Sequence record: OR424387.1 | Strand: one strand, 5' to 3' | Origin: Escherichia phage HEMP4 | DNA length: 39,891 nucleotides | Shown here: positions 2,257-39,891 of the stretch, piece after piece | Layout of the letters: each line of letters starts with the position of its first letter | Numbering within the stretch: position 1 is the stretch's first letter | Notes under the pieces: model-generated | Told to the model about the DNA's origin: nothing | Seen by the model: only the letters and a program-made list of their open reading frames with translations | The model's database searches: none | Made by a program: the position numbers and the translations under genes

Positions 2257-2580
2257 GATGACCTCCTTTGAAGTTTTAGTTAGCAATCACCAGTTAGTAG
2301 CTGGTGATCGGGTGTCAACTAGAGCCTTCAAAGACGCTCCGGGCATATTCCCCTTTTGGGTATTGTATTACGCCTCTCCACCCGACCTTTGTACGGATGT
2401 GACTATGCCAAATTGCAGGCATAAAAAAGCCGCAAAGCTATCGGGTGCGGGTGACCGCTTTGAAGTTCTAGTGCGGTCAGTATGCGATAGCTCTGGCGGC
2501 ATTGTCAAATCATGCGCCACTGAGTCCAGCAATCTCTGCAATACCAATAGCGAGATAATCGCGATTCGTCAGGCGTGATT

Positions 2581-6173: not shown

Positions 6174-6326
6174 TCAGCCCTCCCATATCTCGTTATCGTT
6201 GGCCACATCGCGAGCTTCTTTGCTGACGAAAGCCCACTTAATACCTTCCTGTAAGGTGCGGAACTTCCAGCTCATGAATCCGCATGCAGTAACGCAGTAC
6301 CAACCGTTGATGATTTTCCACTGCAT
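6174..6326 (-). CDS. Small hypothetical protein (50 aa), first gene of leftward operon
   Basis: Hand-translated MQWKIINGWYCVTACGFMSWKFRTLQEGIKWAFVSKEARDVANDNEIWEG; GAGG SD upstream; below ORF-track length cutoff. Confidence 0.3.
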   Translation of the reverse strand: MQWKIINGWYCVTACGFMSWKFRTLQEGIKWAFVSKEARDVANDNEIWEG

Positions 6327-6345
6327 AACTTGTTACCTCGGTTTG

Positions 6346-6360
6346 TTACCGTTGAGGTAA
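6346..6360. promoter_or_regulatory. Operator-like palindrome TTACC-N5-GGTAA (left operator region, site 1)
   Basis: ttaccgttgaggtaa, perfect inverted repeat, intergenic upstream of leftward operon. Confidence 0.55.
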
Positions 6361-6407
6361 TGATTATGCGTATTTGGTTTGGTGTCAATAGATATGAGTT
6401 AAAAAAA

Positions 6408-6422
6408 TTACCCACAAGGTAA
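6408..6422. promoter_or_regulatory. Operator-like palindrome TTACC-N5-GGTAA (left operator region, site 2)
   Basis: ttacccacaaggtaa, perfect; 62 bp from site 1. Confidence 0.55.
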
Positions 6423-6479
6423 TCTTGCTGGCAATAAAAAAGCCGCCATGAGGCGGCTTACTTGCTGAAAACTATAGTT

Positions 6480-7064
6480 TTATTGTTTGCTTTTTTCGTT
6501 CTGGTTGATGACAAATTCAATGTAACTTTCGATCTTTGCTTTCTCGGTTTCGGGTAACAATGCGTAGCGCGAGCGGTCATAGTTGATAGTCGCAGGGTCG
6601 TGCGGGTGAATCAGTAATTCATAGCCGTGACGCCCGAATGCGGATGCAACATTCTCCAGGGTGGAAATGGAAACGCTGACCTCATTGTTTAACAGGCGGC
6701 TGATTGTCACCTGGGCGACGCCGGATGCGCGGTGAAGTTTTCCCTGTGTTGAAAGGTCGCGGCTTTCGCTCATCCAGCGTTCCAGGTTGTGAGCCGCCAG
6801 CTGACCAATGTCGCTTGGGCCGACAGGCTGAAAACCTTCCTGAGAAAGCGAGCGATCGATATCAAGCCAGTTACGGGGTTTATTGGCGGCAGCTTCAATT
6901 TTTCGCGCAACCTGGTCGCCGATAACCTTCTTACCAAGAGCCCAGCGGTTTACCAGATTTGCCTGAGTTCCAAGTTTTTCTGCCATCCGCGTCTGAACAC
7001 CATTGAATTCACGGTCGATCAAGTCGTTGAGATTTTGCCTGCGGACGTCCTGGATACTTTTCAT
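6480..7064 (-). CDS. Putative prophage repressor (HTH, no recognisable S24 peptidase domain)
   Basis: 194 aa, divergent from Cro-like gene with operator cluster between; N-terminal HTH-like segment TRMAEKLGTQANLVNRWALGKK; no Ala-Gly/Ser-Lys autocleavage module seen; no SD upstream of ATG. Confidence 0.55.
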   Translation of the reverse strand: MKSIQDVRRQNLNDLIDREFNGVQTRMAEKLGTQANLVNRWALGKKVIGDQVARKIEAAANKPRNWLDIDRSLSQEGFQPVGPSDIGQLAAHNLERWMSESRDLSTQGKLHRASGVAQVTISRLLNNEVSVSISTLENVASAFGRHGYELLIHPHDPATINYDRSRYALLPETEKAKIESYIEFVINQNEKSKQ

Positions 7065-7119
7065 TTTCTGGAAAATCGCCTCATATATGAATCAGTAGAT
7101 GATTCAATTTAAAGCAATA

Positions 7120-7182
7120 TTACCCAACAGGTAAATGCACCCCATAGGTAACTATCCTTGATTTTTGTTACCTTATGGGTGA
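7120..7182. promoter_or_regulatory. Right operator cluster: three TTACC-N5-GGTAA-type sites (7120..7134 perfect, 7137..7151 8/10, 7168..7182 9/10)
   Basis: ttacccaacaggtaa, gcaccccataggtaa, ttaccttatgggtga within the 154-bp divergent intergenic region. Confidence 0.6.
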
Positions 7183-7218
7183 ATATTTATTATCTGAAAT
7201 AAATATCAGGCAATAGCT

Positions 7219-7449
7219 ATGAGCGATAACGGACATTTCGATTTCAAAAAGCACTGGCTTGCACTTACTCCGGATGAGCGTGAAGCCTTCGCACAGGAAG
7301 CCGGAACGACGAGTCACTATATACAGACTCACTTAACAGGTAAGCGCAAAATGCCAGGTAAGGTATTGATGAATGGGCTTTTTAAAGCCTGTAAAACAAG
7401 ACAATGGCTGCGCTCAAAAGCAGAACTGGCATACTTCTTCTACTCATGA
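7219..7449 (+). CDS. Cro-like / YdaS-type HTH regulator
   Basis: 76 aa, divergent from repressor; LTPDEREAFAQEAGTTSHYIQTHL HTH-like segment. Confidence 0.6.
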   Translation: MSDNGHFDFKKHWLALTPDEREAFAQEAGTTSHYIQTHLTGKRKMPGKVLMNGLFKACKTRQWLRSKAELAYFFYS

Positions 7450-7472
7450 TATCCAGCCACAACCCTCTGTAG

Positions 7473-7494
7473 ACCGCCACCCGGCGGTCTTTTC
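7473..7494 (+). terminator. Rho-independent terminator after cro-like gene
   Basis: GACCGCC-accc-GGCGGTC followed by TTTT. Confidence 0.65.
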
Positions 7495-7597
7495 ATATCT
7501 ATTCGTACCTCAAAGGTAATAAAAAACCAAATCTGGTTGATCAAATTTTCCAATTGTGCAAAATAGCCAATATCAATAACAAAAAGGGGCGGAAAAA

Positions 7598-7810
7598 TTG
7601 AAGATAGTAACCAGAATGGAGGCCGCAAAAGCCGGGTTAAATCGCTATTTCACAGGAAAGCGGTGCCGTCACGGCCATCTCTCTGAAAGGTATGTTCTGA
7701 ACGGAACATGTGTTGAATGTGCAATGAATAGCGCCAACCGCTATCGTAATGAATTTGCTTGTGCACTAAAGAGTGCAAGAGGGGAAACCTATGGCAAGCA
7801 GCTGGATTAA
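7598..7810 (+). CDS. Small Cys/His-rich protein, possible zinc-binding regulator
   Basis: 70 aa, TTG start with AGGGGCGG upstream; CRHGH...CVEC motif; function not recognised. Confidence 0.4.
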   Translation: MKIVTRMEAAKAGLNRYFTGKRCRHGHLSERYVLNGTCVECAMNSANRYRNEFACALKSARGETYGKQLD

Positions 7811-15820: not shown

Positions 15821-15897
15821 TGGCGCGGCATGCAGGATTCGAACCTGCGACCAACCGCTTAGAAGGCGGTTGCTCTGTCCAACTGAGCTAATGCCAC
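15821..15897 (-). tRNA. tRNA-Arg (anticodon UCU)
   Basis: Reverse complement folds as cloverleaf: acceptor GTGGCAT/ATGCCGC (one G-U), D-arm GCTC-AGTTGGACA-GAGC, anticodon stem ACCGC/GCGGT with loop CTTCTAA (anticodon TCT), T-arm GCAGG-TTCGAAT-CCTGC, discriminator G, CCA end; 77 nt. Confidence 0.85.
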
Positions 15898-19230: not shown

Positions 19231-20217
19231 ATGGCTGTTAAAGGCTTAACTGCGCTAACGCTGGCTGACTGGGGTAAGCGCGTCGATCCAAACGGGAAAG
19301 TCGATAAGATTATCGAGCTTCTCGGTCAAACTAACCCGATCCTTCAGGATATGCCTTTTGTCGAAGGGAACCTTCCTACCGGACACCGAACCACCATTCG
19401 TTCTGGTTTACCTTCAGCTACCTGGCGTTTGCTGAACTATGGCGTACAGCCAAGCAAATCAACCACAGTGCAGGTAACCGATTCCGTTGGCATGCTGGAA
19501 ACCTATGCGGAAGTCGATAAGTCACTGGCTGATCTGAACGGCAATACCGCCGAATTCCGCCTGTCTGAAGACCGCGCATTTATTGAAGCGATGAATCAGC
19601 AGATGGCGCAGACGCTGTTTTATGGTGATTCCAGCGTTAACCCTCAGCAGTTTATGGGACTGTCCTCCCGCTATTCCAGCCTGTCTGCGGGTAATGCTCA
19701 GAATATCATTGATGCTGGTGGCACGGGTACAGATAACACCTCAATCTGGTTAGTGGTGTGGGGCGAAAACACCGTGCATGGCATCTTCCCGAAAGGGCAG
19801 AAGGCTGGCATCCAGATGGAAGATAAAGGCCAGGTGACACTGGAAGATGCTAATGGCGGCAAGTACGAAGGCTATCGCACCCATTACAAATGGGATAACG
19901 GACTTGCTCTGCGTGACTGGCGTTATGTTGTTCGCATTGCAAACATCGATGTCAGCAATCTTTCAGAACCATCCTCTGCCGCAAATATTGCGAAGTTGAT
20001 GGTTAAAGCACTACATCGCATTCCAAACCGTGGCATGGGCCGCCCGGTGTTCTACATGAACCGCACTGTAGGCCAGGCTCTTGATCTGCAGTCTCTGGAG
20101 AAAACATCTCTGGCTATCAGCGTAAAAGAGACAGAAGGCGAGTGGTGGACTTCATTCCGTGGTGTACCAATCCGTGAAACTGATGCGCTTCTGGAAACAG
20201 AAGCCCGCGTGGTGTAA
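19231..20217 (+). CDS. Major capsid protein
   Basis: About 330 aa, strong SD, position after scaffold, followed by stem-loop; ORF track start 19225. Confidence 0.75.
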   Translation: MAVKGLTALTLADWGKRVDPNGKVDKIIELLGQTNPILQDMPFVEGNLPTGHRTTIRSGLPSATWRLLNYGVQPSKSTTVQVTDSVGMLETYAEVDKSLADLNGNTAEFRLSEDRAFIEAMNQQMAQTLFYGDSSVNPQQFMGLSSRYSSLSAGNAQNIIDAGGTGTDNTSIWLVVWGENTVHGIFPKGQKAGIQMEDKGQVTLEDANGGKYEGYRTHYKWDNGLALRDWRYVVRIANIDVSNLSEPSSAANIAKLMVKALHRIPNRGMGRPVFYMNRTVGQALDLQSLEKTSLAISVKETEGEWWTSFRGVPIRETDALLETEARVV

Positions 20218-33779: not shown

Positions 33780-34045
33780 GCACATCCCTGTGCCGCCGCC
33801 CGTCAGAAGAACCCAGCCTTGTCGTTGATGTACTCCGCGTGGGTCTGGATATCACGCAGGCATTTGCTCACACCGACGATGTAGCAGAACATGGTGGTCA
33901 GCTCCGCCGCCGCGCCCGATACGTCGTGCCCGTCTTCCTGTAACTGGTTCAGCAGATTCATCAGCAGTGAGTTCTCCGTCAGGCCGAGAACACCAGACGG
34001 CGAATGAATCAGGCTACGGTAGCCGGGCTTCAGTGGGGCACTGTA
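33780..34045. repeat. Internal direct repeat copy B (matches 1578..1842)
   Basis: Same as copy A. Confidence 0.85.
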
Positions 34046-34513
34046 GGTTTTGTTCTCTATCTTCATCGCCTGCATTACTGCTGACGCCGTGGCGTTGGCT
34101 ACCTGGTCGGCAACCATCTTTATGCGTTCTTCCTGCGGGAGCGAGTTTTTAATGTAACTTCCGGTGCGGCGGATCTGAGGAAGAACCTCACCTGTAACCC
34201 ATTTACGAAAGCGGTAGGGGATAGTGCCTGGTGTCACTGCGTCGCGGCAGCGGAGGATCAGTGTGTAGAGGCCTGACTCGGAGATGATGTTGATCTCTTT
34301 TACTCGGCTGTCAAAAATTGCACGATGTTCATGCCCTATGTTGAACATAGACCTTTCATCATCATCCAGTTTTTCAAGTGCTTGGGTGACGTTTTGGATG
34401 CGCAGCGCACTACAAACGTCTTGGGCTACAAACCATGGTTGGCCATCGATAATGATGGAACGGATAGGGTTAACAGATTCAAATTTGAAGATGGCAGTTT
34501 GAGCATTAGCCAT
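33803..34513 (-). CDS. Bro-N domain antirepressor-like protein with shared C-terminal domain
   Basis: ATG at 34513 (ORF track GTG 34528); N-terminal AIFKFESVNPIRSIIIDGQPWFVAQDVCSAL is classic Bro-N; C-terminal 80 aa identical to C-terminus of 1600..2256 gene. Confidence 0.75.
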   Translation of the reverse strand: MANAQTAIFKFESVNPIRSIIIDGQPWFVAQDVCSALRIQNVTQALEKLDDDERSMFNIGHEHRAIFDSRVKEINIISESGLYTLILRCRDAVTPGTIPYRFRKWVTGEVLPQIRRTGSYIKNSLPQEERIKMVADQVANATASAVMQAMKIENKTYSAPLKPGYRSLIHSPSGVLGLTENSLLMNLLNQLQEDGHDVSGAAAELTTMFCYIVGVSKCLRDIQTHAEYINDKAGFF

Positions 34514-34667
34514 GGTGGTTATCTCCACTTAGTGATTTTAATCACCACCGCAACGCCAATTACTGGTGGTGAACTGGACAAGGTTGGCGTACCGGCCTAA
34601 GTGGTACCGGCGTCCTTTCGGACCCCTGCCCAGCCCACCATAATTCGGATATAGCTGTGCTTAACGC

Positions 34668-34780
34668 ATAAAAAAACCACGTCTGGCGTGGTATGCGCCA
34701 CTTAGTAACTCGGGACGCCAATCCCGGCACTGGATTTTGCCAGTGCCTGATTACTATGGCACAAGAGGAGTGCGATGTAA
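34668..34780 (-). ncRNA. Candidate structured small RNA or leader upstream of Bro-N gene
   Basis: Minus-strand noncoding segment with stem-loops GGCACTGG-caaaat-CCAGTGCC and CGGGA-ttggcg-TCCCG, ending in terminator ACCACG-ccaga-CGTGGT plus U7; begins just downstream of operator-like site. Confidence 0.3.
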
Positions 34781-34828: not shown

Positions 34829-35086
34829 TTATCTGGTTTGCTTTCGTAATTGTTCGGCACAATAGTCGAGATGTGTTTGCAGATCCCGCATAGACATCTG
34901 TGAGCTGGTGACGTAGTTAATCAGTGCAGTCAGTTCGGCAAGTGGGCCATCGACATTAAATCCATCCTTATCGAGATCCCGGAGTAATTTCATCAAGTGC
35001 GATCCCTCCACCAGTGACCTGACGCCTCCCGGCGTGTGAATCCTTTCGGTAAATCCGTCTTCCAGTGGATAGTGATACTGCTGCAT
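34829..35086 (-). CDS. Small antirepressor-like protein (85 aa), free-standing homolog of the shared C-terminal domain; LexA box upstream
   Basis: ATG 35086 with GGAGAA SD (ORF track TTG 35104); IHTPGGVRSLVEGSHLMKLL...DGPLAELTALINYVTSSQMSMRDLQTHLDY aligns with [20 protein letters not shown]...[30 protein letters not shown] of the two larger proteins. Confidence 0.6.
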   Translation of the reverse strand: MQQYHYPLEDGFTERIHTPGGVRSLVEGSHLMKLLRDLDKDGFNVDGPLAELTALINYVTSSQMSMRDLQTHLDYCAEQLRKQTR

Positions 35087-35105: not shown

Positions 35106-35125
35106 AACTGTATAAATATACAGTA
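35106..35125. promoter_or_regulatory. LexA (SOS) box
   Basis: aaCTGTataaatatACAGta: CTGT-N8-ACAG with AT-rich spacer, matching consensus; 20 bp upstream of small Ant-like gene start. Confidence 0.7.
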
Positions 35126-35162: not shown

Positions 35163-35177
35163 TCACCTGAAAGGTAA
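35163..35177. promoter_or_regulatory. Operator-like site (9/10 match, TCACC-N5-GGTAA)
   Basis: tcacctgaaaggtaa between LexA box and tailspike start. Confidence 0.4.
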
Positions 35178-35281: not shown

Positions 35282-37471
35282 ATGACGGTCTCAACCGAAG
35301 TTGACCACAACGAATACACAGGTAACGGCGTTACGACATCATTTCCGTATACCTTCCGTATTTTCAAAAAATCCGACCTGGTTGTTCAGGTGTCTGACCT
35401 GAACGGGAACGTAACAGAATTGGTTCTGGATACCGGTTATACGGTAACTGGGGCGGGCACTTATAGTGGCGGTTCTGTGGTTCTTCCGTCTCCGCTTGCT
35501 GCTGGCTGGCGAATTACGATAGAGCGTGTGCTTGATGTGGTGCAGGAGACTGATCTTCGCAATCAGGGAAAATTTTTCCCCGAAGTTCATGAAGATGCAT
35601 TTGACTACCTGACGATGCTGATCCAGCGATGTTTTGGGTGGTTCAGACGTGCATTGATGAAACCATCTTTGCTTGCAAAATATTACGATGCAAAGCAAAA
35701 CAAAATTTCTAACCTTGCAGATCCATCATTTGAGCAGGACGCTGTAAATAATCGCTCAATGCGTAATTATGTCGATGCTGCAATCGCCGGGGTTGTTGGT
35801 GGTTTTGGTTGGTTTATACCGTCAGGAAGCGGGGCAAGACAACGAACATTTCAAAGCAAAATGAGGGATATAATTTCTCCTTGTGATTACGAAGATAATA
35901 TTTTTATGATTAAGGAGTTGATATCCAAAGGCAAAAATGCCGCTGTTTTTAACTCATATTATACTTTTGTTATTACTGTTGGCGAATGGGGTGATTACCC
36001 TACACTCAAAGATGCAATCATTGCAGCCCAGTCAATGAGACCTATGTGGGATGGTGGTAATGCTTTCTGCGAAATAAGAATTAAGACCGGGCATATTATC
36101 AACTATCAAATTGAATTCAGTTCAGGTGTTGATTTGTCTTGGATTAAAATAACATCAGAAGACTCAGTGGTTTTCTCTGACACTCGTTTGTTTACTAAAA
36201 TCGTTAGAACGTATTACGAATACAAGTATTTATTTTACATTTGCGATGCAGCAAAAAGTCCTGTATTTGCTATTCAGATCGAAGAAAATAGAGATGATAG
36301 CGATGTTTGTGCATTTATTGTAACTCAAAAAGCTGAACTTAATTTCTATCCGTATTCAGGTGCTCGAAAGTTCTACGTTGGAATTCATGGTAGTTTTGGT
36401 GCAAAAATTAGTGCATATCATACCGGATGTGCTCCTGATGAGGAAAGTGTTGCTGCATATATGCCAGAAGGGTATTACGTATGTGATTTTTCTTATAGCA
36501 GATACTCTTCCCTGCAACTGGTAAATAATGTCAAGGCATCAATGCCTGTAAGCAAGTTTGAACGGTGCACAGAGAGTACGGTTGCGTCAGTTAATTGTAT
36601 TTATAATGTTAAAGCAGATTTTCAGGGGTCAAGTGCAAGCTATTGTTATATAGGATGGAATGTAAGAGATGGTTCAAATGTTAATATACGCGACCATAAA
36701 ACTATACATTGCTCATATCGTGGATTAACCTGCATTCATACAGCATATGTTGATGCAAGACGACATGACGTTGAAGAAAGTGATGCAGAAACAAGTGGTA
36801 AAGTCCTTGAACCAAATATTGAAAAAGGTTTTTATGGATGTGCACTTGGTGTGCGTATTGATGGTGCGGGTTGCGTTGATGTTGCTGGTAATGATATGCG
36901 CAATTGTGGAACAGCCGTTAATGCAGACACTGGTGCTGTTATTTCAGGAAAGGCTGTAGATATCTCAGGGGCTGAGCTGGGATTTGATTGCCATGCAGGA
37001 GCATCTGTTAATTTTCCAAGGCTATGGGGTACAGATATAAAAAAATTAATGCACCTCCAAGATGGTGTAAGGTTTAACTCTAATATTTGTCATGTATTTG
37101 GTGCAAATCCCACAAAAGATATTAGATGGATTGATGTAGAGAGATCTGAAGCTTCTTTTATGAATGCAACGCTGGATGCAGATTCAGGATTTATTGCCGA
37201 CTGTGGTAGTAGGATAACCATTGAAGGAAGTAAAGTTAAAAACCAAACAATAAGAAGTTTTTTTGGATCATATGTGGCTATAAATAATACTGTTGCTGAC
37301 AGAACTTATTCAGATATAGCCGATGTTCCGCAGTTGACTATTAGTGGAGGATCTTTTATTTCTGCTACAGGATATTCTAATTCTGACTCCAGCCCTCTGA
37401 GGTTGAGCACAACACGAAATACACTTGGCGTTGGAGGAGCCATATTTTCAACCAATGGGGAAGTTTCATGA
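35282..37471 (+). CDS. Tail fiber/tailspike: T7 gp17-like N-terminal adaptor domain plus beta-helix-like receptor-binding region
   Basis: 729 aa; N-terminal YTGNGVTTSFPYTFRIFKKSDLVVQV resembles T7 tail fiber N-terminal domain; central/C-terminal Gly/Asn/Val-rich repeats typical of parallel beta-helix depolymerases; distal part AT-rich. Confidence 0.75.
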   Translation: MTVSTEVDHNEYTGNGVTTSFPYTFRIFKKSDLVVQVSDLNGNVTELVLDTGYTVTGAGTYSGGSVVLPSPLAAGWRITIERVLDVVQETDLRNQGKFFPEVHEDAFDYLTMLIQRCFGWFRRALMKPSLLAKYYDAKQNKISNLADPSFEQDAVNNRSMRNYVDAAIAGVVGGFGWFIPSGSGARQRTFQSKMRDIISPCDYEDNIFMIKELISKGKNAAVFNSYYTFVITVGEWGDYPTLKDAIIAAQSMRPMWDGGNAFCEIRIKTGHIINYQIEFSSGVDLSWIKITSEDSVVFSDTRLFTKIVRTYYEYKYLFYICDAAKSPVFAIQIEENRDDSDVCAFIVTQKAELNFYPYSGARKFYVGIHGSFGAKISAYHTGCAPDEESVAAYMPEGYYVCDFSYSRYSSLQLVNNVKASMPVSKFERCTESTVASVNCIYNVKADFQGSSASYCYIGWNVRDGSNVNIRDHKTIHCSYRGLTCIHTAYVDARRHDVEESDAETSGKVLEPNIEKGFYGCALGVRIDGAGCVDVAGNDMRNCGTAVNADTGAVISGKAVDISGAELGFDCHAGASVNFPRLWGTDIKKLMHLQDGVRFNSNICHVFGANPTKDIRWIDVERSEASFMNATLDADSGFIADCGSRITIEGSKVKNQTIRSFFGSYVAINNTVADRTYSDIADVPQLTISGGSFISATGYSNSDSSPLRLSTTRNTLGVGGAIFSTNGEVS

Positions 37472-39764: not shown

Positions 39765-39891
39765 CATGGCATTTTTCATGGTACTGATTTCCGGTGACGG
39801 TATATAAAACGGTACGATAAAAATTGAGATTTGGAAAAATGTTATCACTCAATTGGTTATGGTTATCGTAAATAATTGAGTGGGAATGATT
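39765..39891. repeat. Terminal direct repeat, copy 2 (identical to 1..127)
   Basis: Exact match to window start. Confidence 0.9.

Follow-up and report, generated by a model that had tools for sequence, protein, structure and literature searches.

The immunity region of the Uetakevirus-like prophage HEMP4: an SPC32H-type repressor, its predicted operators and a putative LexA-controlled antirepressor

The window, by which we mean the whole analysed stretch of 39,891 nucleotides of Escherichia phage HEMP4 (OR424387.1), is an entire epsilon15/phiV10-like (Uetakevirus) prophage; its two att copies, with the core ATTGAGTGGGAATGATT, are found at its ends. The phages phiV10, TL-2011b and ZX5 are ~97% identical to it. 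The repressor gene rep shares its syntenic position with rep of epsilon15 and of SPC32H and faces away from a Cro-like gene whose position is likewise syntenic in phiV10 and epsilon15 (Table 1). The first-pass annotation had placed here a 194-aa open reading frame for an immunity repressor. The reading frame exists, with the start codon that RefSeq assigns in an E. coli prophage of 100% identity; homologs with as little as 42% identity keep the N-terminus MKSIxDxRRxN unchanged. The repressors of phiV10 (phiV10p40) and ZX5 are 99.5% identical to Rep, and the phiV10 record annotates a terminator at the matching place 3′ of rep. Its function as an immunity repressor is borne out by the essentially identical ZX5 protein, whose overexpression blocks lytic growth, abolishes free phage and lowers lysis-gene transcripts by 99.97–99.99% (PMC9782041). 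Published work and GenBank annotation already cover the rep gene, its family, the operator motif and the mechanism of induction.

Table 1. Features of the HEMP4 immunity region and of related loci in the window (positions of the window; aa, residues of Rep).
Feature	Position	Strand	Basis or remark
Bro-N/Ant-domain gene	33803..34513	-	domain match
C4 RNA	34562-34645	-	Rfam, 66 bits
isrK RNA	34670-34746	-	Rfam, 67 bits
ant, 85-aa SPC32H-type antirepressor	34829..35086	-	87% identity to SPC32H Ant (5e-56); phrog_450, 7e-48
Putative LexA box CTGTATAAATATACAG	35108..35123		exact CTGT-N8-ACAG, 21 nt 5′ of ant ATG
Operator copy, 1 mismatch	35163..35177		ant/tail-fibre divergent region
Leftward-promoter operator, exact	6346..6360		abuts -10 of predicted PL
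Predicted PL, TTGACA-17-AATCAT	6388..6360	-	promoter scan
Second leftward operator, exact	6408..6422		5′ of PL -35, 62 bp from the first
rep intrinsic terminator	6440..6459	-	8-bp stem, 6 GC pairs, then T run
rep, 194-aa immunity repressor, predicted non-cleavable	6480..7064	-	homology, domain search and structure match
Rep DNA-binding domain, followed by linker	aa 1-70		approximate, alignment to SPC32H Rep
Rep HTH-like dimerization domain	aa 89-152		approximate, alignment to SPC32H Rep
Rep tetramerization/Ant-binding domain, beta/alpha	aa 153-194		approximate, alignment to SPC32H Rep
Predicted rep 5′ leader, AU-rich, SD-poor, unstructured	7065..7100	-	sequence and folding
Predicted rep maintenance promoter, TTTACC-18-TAAATT	-35 7135..7130, -10 7111..7106	-	score 9.6
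O-A TTACCCAACAGGTAA, exact consensus	7120..7134		overlaps -35 of predicted rep promoter
O-B GCACCCCATAGGTAA, 2 mismatches	7137..7151		centre ~-45 from predicted rep transcription start
O-C TTACCTTATGGGTGA, 1 mismatch	7168..7182		in spacer and -10 of rightward early promoter
Predicted rightward early promoter (PR-like), TTGATT-17-GAATAT	7158..7186	+	TTGATTTTT invariant in six phages
Alternative predicted rightward promoter, TTGTTA-17-TATTAT	7165-7193	+	promoter scan
Cro-like 76-aa gene, epsilon15 gp39 homolog	7219..7449	+	phrog_35 'transcriptional repressor', 5.6e-13
Operator copy, 1 mismatch	7505..7519		3′ of cro-like terminator, 5′ of gene at 7598

The 25 nt 5′ of the rep ATG read CATATATGAGGCGATTTTCCAGAAA. 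They hold a single Shine–Dalgarno (SD)-like element, GAGG, at −18 to −15 (7079–7082). The claim that no SD lies within 15 nt of the ATG at 7064 is literally true, because GAGG leaves 14 nt to the start codon. Tyrion, Klebsiella phage BUCT711, epsilon15 and SPC32H do not conserve the element, and neither the window nor any of the five relatives compared has a usable SD for rep. A weighted-matrix scan found the predicted rep promoter, with a transcription start near 7098–7100 and a leader of ~35 nt (33–36 nt across six phages). The candidate at this position scores highest on the rep strand in the window, BUCT711, epsilon15 and SPC32H, and the top candidate in Tyrion and BUCT554 is TTTACC-17-TTTAAT (score 7.9) at the matching position; the TTTACC −35 of the top-scoring rep-strand candidate is thus placed identically in six phages. 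Scores of at least 9.6 occur at 49 of 79,720 window positions, and a strict sigma-70 scan returned no rep-strand promoter in 7065–7218.

The lack of an SD had been read in the first-pass annotation as a sign of a leaderless message, like that of lambda cI from PRM, starting at the A of the ATG. The AU-rich sequence 5′ of the ATG fits this idea, as does a TTAGGT-17-TACAAT element of epsilon15 and SPC32H (score 8.1) that ends 4 nt before the ATG. However, at 4 nt this element is too near to the ATG for transcription to begin at its A, and phages of the phiV10/Tyrion group do not have it. Promoters of the leaderless type, with 5–8 nt between −10 and ATG, reach a best score of only 0.8 in the window (rank 36 of 820) and 4.2 in Tyrion, and score negative in the other four relatives, while the better and positionally conserved promoter predicts the ~35-nt leader. 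Translation without an SD from an unstructured leader is well established as an alternative and fits the folding result: leader plus 40 nt of coding sequence fold at −5.5 kcal/mol vs. a shuffle mean of −11 (z = +2.1). A leaderless rep transcript is not supported by these comparisons and we consider it unlikely. Most likely, rep is transcribed from the weak predicted promoter ~35 nt 5′ of its ATG, and the message is probably translated without an SD interaction from an AU-rich, unstructured leader.

Other explanations for the start region were considered and set aside. A leader peptide coupled to rep, encoded by a mini-ORF overlapping the rep ATG (ATGAGGCGATTTTCCAGAAAATGA), is not conserved: the mini-ORF is present in the window and in BUCT554, its ATG is lost in Tyrion, and in epsilon15 an upstream ATG is placed differently, out of frame with rep and free of the ATGA overlap. 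A hairpin that would move GAGG nearer to the ATG consists of a mere 5-bp A–U stem, is not conserved and falls in a region predicted to be unstructured. An internal start codon with an SD is rejected by the invariant N-terminus and by the solved SPC32H chain, which aligns from residue 2. As for protein sites in this region, the IHF site WATCAANNNNTTR, annotated in epsilon15 between rep and O-A, is matched in the window only with 2 mismatches, on either strand. A perfect 7-N5-7 palindrome stands at 7088–7106, at the predicted start of the leader; no other copies are found in the window that would make it a repeated operator, and it might serve another regulator as a binding site.

The motif TTACC-N5-GGTAA has nine exact copies in the window vs. 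0.05 expected, and 14 vs. 1.1 expected when up to one mismatch is allowed, with 14 of 14 being intergenic. Three sites, O-A, O-B and O-C, lie in the 154-bp divergent region between rep and the Cro-like gene (7065–7218), and their positions are conserved in six phages. Both half-sites of O-A are invariant in these phages, as are the position of O-B and its ACC...GGTAA bases; epsilon15 and SPC32H carry TCACC-N5-GGTAA at the place of O-C. The expectation of three operator-like sites with a recognition sequence other than that of lambda was therefore correct (7120, 7137 and 7168). The proposed likeness to lambda OR1–3 holds for the tripartite operator between divergent rep and cro, but not for its geometry or its reach: centre-to-centre spacings are 17 and 31 bp, and the operator is dispersed genome-wide. 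In lambda, operators are spaced ~23–24 bp apart.

Beyond the rep/cro region, operators are found at about ten other intergenic regions. The two exact leftward copies are matched by a pair with the same 62-bp spacing in epsilon15 (32555/32617). The epsilon15 record annotates the motif as a 'repressor' protein_bind feature at homologous positions, including 19895–19911, the counterpart of the copy in the ant/tail-fibre region, and leaves two exact OR copies without annotation as repressor sites. We infer that Rep binds (A)TTACC-N5-GGTAA(T), the predicted operator. Since copies stand at so many intergenic regions, one Rep protein probably silences most prophage transcription units. At the perfect-consensus O-A, Rep would occlude its own weak predicted promoter, and maintenance expression would therefore hang on the balance between sites.

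It could be argued that these sites are not, or not only, Rep operators, but serve another phage factor such as the Cro-like protein or a late regulator. They are present before the terminase, portal and DUF1064 genes and not at early promoters alone, and phages with Rep proteins of only 43% identity have the same half-sites. Yet the DNA-binding domain is the best conserved part of Rep (54–56% identity vs. 34–44% elsewhere), and its presumed recognition helix, NLVNRW, is nearly invariant, with residues N36, L37, R40 and W41 invariant, which fits conserved half-sites. As one would expect of repressor sites, they also overlap core elements of predicted PR and PL, and the curated epsilon15 record labels them as repressor-binding. 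It would be nothing unusual for Rep and Cro to use the sites in common, and this would agree with the explanation favoured here. A reading of the sites as belonging to another factor is, in our view, quite improbable.

Rep itself aligns over its full length to the SPC32H repressor (PDB 5D50_A, 'Repressor'; phmmer E = 3.5e-42, Rep aa 1–190 vs. chain residues 2–197). SPC32H entries 5D50 and 5D4Z are the top PDB matches of the Rep AlphaFold model among 420 Foldseek matches, with a TM-score of 0.79 (normalised by target length) against the C-terminal fragment chain 5D4Z_H. Pfam finds HTH_3 at aa 106–147 (1.2e-9) and a weak YdaS-type HTH at aa 21–61; the phiV10 record notes 'two helix-turn-helix motifs' in its repressor. 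The approximate domain borders in Table 1 follow the SPC32H order DBD, MDD and CAD, named by Kim et al. (2016) as relayed in PMC9986798. The C-terminal half, earlier described as helical, is not simply so: it comprises an HTH-like dimerization domain and a beta/alpha domain for tetramerization and Ant binding, the latter 43% identical to its SPC32H counterpart.

The same searches bear on the autocleavage module. The prophage family is reported to be inducible, and a divergent rep/cro pair with three operators resembles lambdoid switches, so one may ask whether Rep is a cryptic repressor of the lambda cI/LexA type with a cleavage module too diverged to recognise. Domain prediction gives no Peptidase_S24 match at E ≤ 0.1, and the Rep sequence contains no Ala–Gly or Cys–Gly dipeptide, in agreement with the first-pass annotation, which had seen no such module. 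No S24 protease fold is found among the best 50 of 420 Foldseek matches, which 5D50 and 5D4Z head; the only LexA entry among these best 50 is 2KPJ, at rank 34. The C-terminal part that aligns to SPC32H Rep is a solved dimerization/tetramerization unit, and a dedicated, putatively LexA-controlled Ant is present. Cryptic autocleavage is, accordingly, very improbable. The absence of a cleavage domain is ordinary, because this type of Rep is inactivated by a small antirepressor encoded in the prophage. Rep has no protease domain, and its cleavage on RecA filaments is not expected. Equally improbable is a role as an XRE-family antitoxin or generic regulator, the 'VapI antidote' of some records: one phage record does say plasmid maintenance antidote and the weak Pfam match is to YdaS, but the prophage lacks a toxin partner, synteny places the gene where epsilon15 and SPC32H have rep, overexpression of the ZX5 protein gives a phenotype that speaks for a repressor, and the homology to a structurally characterised repressor is full-length.

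The antirepressor gene ant is divergent from a tail-fibre gene at 35282, as in SPC32H, and the position of its putative LexA box is conserved in SPC32H, epsilon15 and phiv142-3. Kim and Ryu reportedly found in 2013 that Ant of the SPC32H type is structurally distinct from earlier antirepressors of Sipho- and Myoviridae, and in 2016 Kim and colleagues are said to have shown that SPC32H Ant does not compete for the DNA-binding surface of Rep. The 2013 study reportedly also describes, for SPC32N, constitutive Ant with a clear-plaque or hyper-inducible phenotype when the LexA box is mutated. On DNA, SPC32H Rep is tetrameric; an Ant tetramer binds two dimers of Rep and breaks up the Rep tetramer (PMC9638917). 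Production of Ant follows the self-cleavage of LexA during the SOS response (PMC7380047). By analogy with this literature, HEMP4 Rep would likewise be a non-cleavable tetramer that Ant disassembles. Against a Rep–Ant pairing by homology, Rep is only 41–43% identical to its SPC32H counterpart vs. 87% for Ant.

We hypothesize the following course of events. In the lysogen, Rep would occupy the three rep/cro sites, with O-C lying in the rightward early promoter, O-A over the −35 of the rep promoter and O-B between them, together with the copies at the leftward promoter and in some eight further intergenic regions. DNA damage would lead to LexA cleavage and to derepression of ant, and Ant would then bind the C-terminal domains of Rep and pull it off the DNA. 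Within this scheme, we infer the rep and early promoters, the leader and autoregulation from the sequence; binding of Rep to its operators, binding of LexA to its box, the Rep–Ant interaction and the rep transcription start presumably hold in the HEMP4 prophage. Taken as a whole, we regard it as highly probable that an integrated epsilon15/phiV10-type (Uetakevirus) prophage has its immunity switch at the rep locus, with a non-cleavable Rep of the SPC32H type, an SOS-controlled Ant and a rep leader of ~35 nt.

Among known systems, the repressors of phiV10 (gp40), vB_EcoP_ZX5 (ORF21) and TL-2011b are 99.0–99.5% identical to Rep and the locus is ~97–98% identical, i.e., this is essentially the same gene in another lysogen. 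The ZX5 study tested a Bro-N 'anti-repressor', and its text contains no mention of LexA or SPC32H (PMC9782041). SPC32H Rep/Ant (Kim & Ryu 2013; Kim et al. 2016; PDB 5D4Z, 5D50) shares the three-part Rep architecture with full-length alignment, the position of the LexA box, the operator half-sites, the layout of sites at OR, OL and the ant region, and an Ant of 87% identity; it differs in that the operators of HEMP4 have a lower AT content at their centres and that O-B and O-C show mismatches. The repressor of epsilon15 (gp38) is 42–43% identical, and this phage shares the motif ATTACC-N5-GGTAAT and its dispersal before terS, the portal operon and the ruvC/DUF1064 gene, in the ant/tailspike region and at OL, where it has three exact copies vs. 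two in the window.

The likeness to lambda cI consists of the divergent repressor and cro, three operators with one in PR and one over the repressor promoter, and a repressor gene without an SD. In contrast to cI, Rep has no S24 autocleavage domain and has other oligomerization domains and another operator sequence; the HEMP4 operators are genome-wide, the rep transcript is predicted to carry a leader, and induction would proceed through an antirepressor. Non-cleavable repressors inactivated by a small LexA-repressed antirepressor are also described for coliphage 186 (Tum), the Gifsy prophages and N15 (PMC7380047). The HEMP4 Rep/Ant pair would follow a matching logic.

A second module with an Ant domain lies downstream of ant and is missing in SPC32H and epsilon15. 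A C4-family RNA stands directly 5′ of a Bro-N antirepressor-type gene on the same strand, a feature of the immI module of the P1/P7/N15 type, where a C4 antisense RNA controls an antirepressor, and an isrK RNA accompanies it. The C-terminal domain of the Bro-N protein is a paralog of Ant (43% identity). The two Ant-domain proteins may be wired differently, the small Ant being repressed by LexA and the Bro-N–Ant protein standing behind the isrK and C4 antisense RNAs and Rep operators. The latter could be a positive-feedback latch that is repressed by Rep and gated by RNA, or else an antirepressor engaged in cross-talk. A fuller picture, in which a phiV10-type Rep stands under two differently wired Ant-domain proteins, rep is translated independently of an SD behind a ~35-nt leader and the palindrome at 7088–7106 is a regulator site, is conceivable but doubtful.

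As a discovery, the locus matters little, the system being already known. Details on the SD-less translation of rep, on where its transcription begins and on the second Ant-domain protein would sharpen the known model and not change it. The LexA–Ant wiring would explain the response of such prophages to DNA damage while the repressor stays uncleaved. The practical value is one of annotation: in E. coli genomes, rep is labelled only as a 'helix-turn-helix domain-containing protein', and the immunity region is present in 558 of 5426 complete E. coli genomes (~10%).

The repressor candidate of this prophage, Rep, is real and correctly located, but it is already known: phiV10 carries the same protein with the annotation repressor, work on ZX5 has tested it, the mechanism of the family has been solved structurally, and GenBank annotation covers the operator motif. 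Rep shares 99.5% identity with the repressors of phiV10, ZX5 and numerous further E. coli phages. When its essentially identical counterpart was overexpressed in ZX5, free phage disappeared and holin and endolysin transcripts fell by 99.97–99.99% (PMC9782041). The start of the rep ORF matches the RefSeq start codon of a 100%-identical prophage, and the N-terminus MKSIxDxRRxN is invariant in homologs down to 42% identity. All 8 records among the matches listed label the gene as a helix-turn-helix protein only.

The first-pass annotation described a repressor lacking an autocleavage module, and this stands: domain prediction with Pfam gave no Peptidase_S24 signal in Rep, and its sequence holds no Ala-Gly or Cys-Gly dipeptide. 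The description of the C-terminal half as helical has to be corrected, as Pfam places a significant HTH_3 domain at aa 106–147 (1.2e-9); the N-terminal part gives only a weak HTH signal, and the phiV10 record carries the remark “two helix-turn-helix motifs” for its repressor. Lambda cI/LexA-type repressors are defined by an S24 domain and a cleavage site, both absent from Rep. Rep aligns over its full length (E 3.5e-42) with the repressor of SPC32H, a Salmonella phage with a characterised Rep/Ant pair (crystal structures 5D4Z and 5D50), at 54% identity in the DNA-binding, 34% in the middle and 43% in the C-terminal domain. The AlphaFold model of Rep, built on 37 homologs (mean pLDDT 76), has 5D50 and 5D4Z as its closest PDB matches, and no S24 protease fold is among the 50 PDB matches listed. 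For SPC32H Rep, later papers describe an N-terminal DNA-binding domain, a middle dimerization domain and a C-terminal domain that forms tetramers and binds the antirepressor (PMC9986798), and a tetramer on DNA that is broken when tetrameric Ant takes two Rep dimers (PMC9638917). By analogy, tetramer formation, Ant-driven disassembly and non-cleavage, properties of the SPC32H system, would apply to Rep as well.

The switching-off of a non-cleavable Rep is predicted to depend on elements elsewhere in the window, the small antirepressor gene ant and its LexA box. Ant is 87% identical to SPC32H Ant, and the LexA box, a Rep operator copy and the entire intergenic layout at ant align with SPC32H and epsilon15. 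Every sequence-testable defining feature of the SPC32H Rep/Ant switch is found here: Rep is homologous over its full length and lacks an S24 module, and a cognate Ant, the LexA box and the operator motif are all present. In the 2013 work of Kim and Ryu, the SOS response reportedly leaves SPC32H Rep uncleaved, and a LexA-box point mutation in phage SPC32N is said to give constitutive Ant. For Salmonella prophages of the SPC32H kind, a review states that Ant is produced after LexA self-cleavage and that the repressor is inhibited by protein–protein contact (PMC7380047, citing Kim and Ryu 2013). LexA–Ant wiring is likewise predicted for this E. coli lineage; the ZX5 paper tested a different “anti-repressor”, a Bro-N protein, and mentions neither LexA nor SPC32H in its text (PMC9782041).

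This prophage also has a Bro-N protein, and its C-terminal 80 residues (domain at aa 153–234) are paralogous to Ant: they share 43% identity with the small Ant and match phrog_450 (4e-36) and the Ant chain of PDB 5D50 (E 1.2e-13). Two Ant-domain proteins, apparently under different control, are therefore encoded in the prophage. Matches to isrK and C4 antisense RNA are placed downstream of ant, between it and the Bro-N gene, in an arrangement of the same style as immI of P1/P7/N15. Rep operator copies lie on both sides of this isrK/C4/Bro-N module, one of them adjoining a predicted promoter. SPC32H and epsilon15 lack the module. Its presence here hints at another way of inactivating Rep, under separate control, or at cross-talk with other prophages.

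Coordinates of the repressor, antirepressor and operator features (PR and PL, rightward and leftward early promoters)
Feature	Position	Strand	Remarks
rep	6480..7064	-	194-aa ORF
O-A	7120-7134		exact TTACC-N5-GGTAA
O-B	7137-7151		2 mismatches
O-C	7168-7182		1 mismatch; in spacer and -10 of predicted PR
Other Rep-operator copies	261, 6346, 6408, 7505, 9407, 9469, 13009, 13027, 16220, 33722, 34783, 35163		0-1 mismatch
Regions with Rep operators			upstream of int; PL; PR; before gene 7598; before DUF1064 gene; before terS; before portal operon; three in ant/Bro-N region
Predicted PR			TTGATT-17-GAATAT; -35 invariant in six phages
Predicted PL			TTGACA-17-AATCAT; bracketed by two exact operator copies 62 bp apart
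Bro-N protein gene	33803-34513	-	236 aa; N-terminal Bro-N domain (Pfam 1e-19)
C4 antisense RNA	34562-34645	-	Rfam, 66 bits
isrK	34670-34746	-	Rfam, 67 bits
ant	34829..35086	-	85 aa; divergent from tail-fibre gene
LexA box CTGTATAAATATACAG	35108-35123		perfect match; 21 nt upstream of ant ATG

The operator TTACC-N5-GGTAA occurs in nine exact copies in the window (0.05 expected) and in 14 with at most one mismatch (1.1 expected). All 14 are intergenic, in a sequence of which ~15% is intergenic; two copies before the terminase small-subunit gene are counted so by homology with the epsilon15 start. Three operator-like sites had been proposed in the 154-bp divergent region between rep and the Cro-like gene, and three 5-N5-5 palindromes (O-A, O-B and O-C) are indeed there. 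Their positions are the same and their half-site bases invariant in an alignment with five relatives (Tyrion, BUCT554, Klebsiella phage BUCT711, epsilon15 and SPC32H), which takes in two groups with repressors only 42–45% identical. The recognition sequence, described as different from that of lambda, is not new, because in the curated epsilon15 GenBank record this motif already carries, at homologous positions, a protein_bind annotation reading “repressor”. The parallel with lambda goes no further than gene layout and operator number in the divergent region. The OR1–3 picture is right about three sites between divergent genes and incomplete otherwise, because Rep probably acts at about ten promoter regions; the centre-to-centre spacings (17 and 31 bp) are also unlike those of lambda. 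Nearly every transcription unit is preceded by an operator copy, the integrase, terminase and portal operons included.

A spacing of exactly 62 bp separates the members of two operator pairs (6346/6408 and 9407/9469) and recurs in epsilon15 pairs, which hints that a tetramer bridges two sites flanking a promoter. O-B and O-C mirror each other around the PR -35, with 18-nt arms (7135-7152 and 7167-7184) that are 78% complementary and take in the mismatched outer half-sites CACCC/GGGTG; epsilon15 and SPC32H do not show this symmetry.

The 25 nt preceding the rep ATG are CATATATGAGGCGATTTTCCAGAAA. A GAGG at -18 to -15 lies 14 nt from the ATG, too distant for a normal Shine–Dalgarno interaction, and is not conserved in the alignment in Tyrion, Klebsiella phage BUCT711, epsilon15 or SPC32H; the missing Shine–Dalgarno sequence is real and a family trait. 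The step from there to a leaderless mRNA is not supported. With every -35/spacer/-10 combination on the rep strand scored on a weighted matrix, the top match is TTTACC-18-TAAATT (9.6) in the window, BUCT711, epsilon15 and SPC32H, and TTTACC-17-TTTAAT (7.9), at an unchanged position, in Tyrion and BUCT554. A score of at least 9.6 is reached at only 49 of 79,720 window positions, and the lambda PRM hexamers score 9.7 on the same matrix. The predicted -10 lies 39–42 nt from the ATG, which gives a leader of ~33–36 nt. A truly leaderless rep transcript, the reading drawn from the missing Shine–Dalgarno sequence, is quite unlikely: the predicted promoter occupies the same position in six phages, whereas elements placed 5–8 nt ahead of the ATG reach at best 0.8 in the window and 4.2 in Tyrion, and stay below 0 in the other four.

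We lean instead towards a rep mRNA with a short, AU-rich, unstructured leader without a Shine–Dalgarno sequence. Folded together with the initial 40 coding nt, the predicted leader is almost structure-free (-5.5 kcal/mol vs. -11 for shuffles); 200 of 200 shuffles fold at least as well as the native region, and the relatives’ leader regions also fold weakly (-4.6 to -7.9 kcal/mol). It is established that Shine–Dalgarno-independent initiation depends on a lack of local structure. In the predicted -35, an invariant A is joined to the right half-site of O-A. If rep is indeed transcribed from this promoter, O-A (centre ~ -28) would act to silence it, and O-B (centre ~ -45) would be placed for a possible activator contact.

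The Cro-like gene (7219-7449, plus strand) also has a poor Shine–Dalgarno sequence, CAGG at -11 to -8 (duplex energy -2.5 kcal/mol), and weak ribosome-binding sites may be common to both switch genes. A perfect 7-N5-7 palindrome, TGAATCAgtagaTGATTCA (7088-7106), lies between the predicted rep -10 and the ATG, at the predicted transcription start, with no further copies in the window. Tyrion and BUCT554 retain only part of it, and epsilon15, SPC32H and BUCT711 have a lone TTACC half-site instead; the epsilon15 annotation at this place is IHF. The palindrome may be a site for another regulator.

As a whole, the window comprises a complete prophage in its integrated form, a member of the epsilon15/phiV10 group (genus Uetakevirus). 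Identical copies of the 17-bp core ATTGAGTGGGAATGATT, reported as the attachment core of this group (PMC9782041), stand at both ends (111-127 and 39875-39891), so the stretch is the whole prophage with attL and attR; the integration site reported for the group is the 3′ end of guaA. Phages vB_EcoP_ZX5, TL-2011b and phiV10 are ~97–98% identical to it across most of its length, and the immunity region (6300-7600) is present in 558 of 5426 complete E. coli genomes. An sRNA-Xcc1 match (Rfam, 63 bits; 2298-2387, minus strand) lies near the integrase-side genes, and a tRNA-Arg(TCT) gene (15821-15897, minus strand) lies between the terminase and portal regions.
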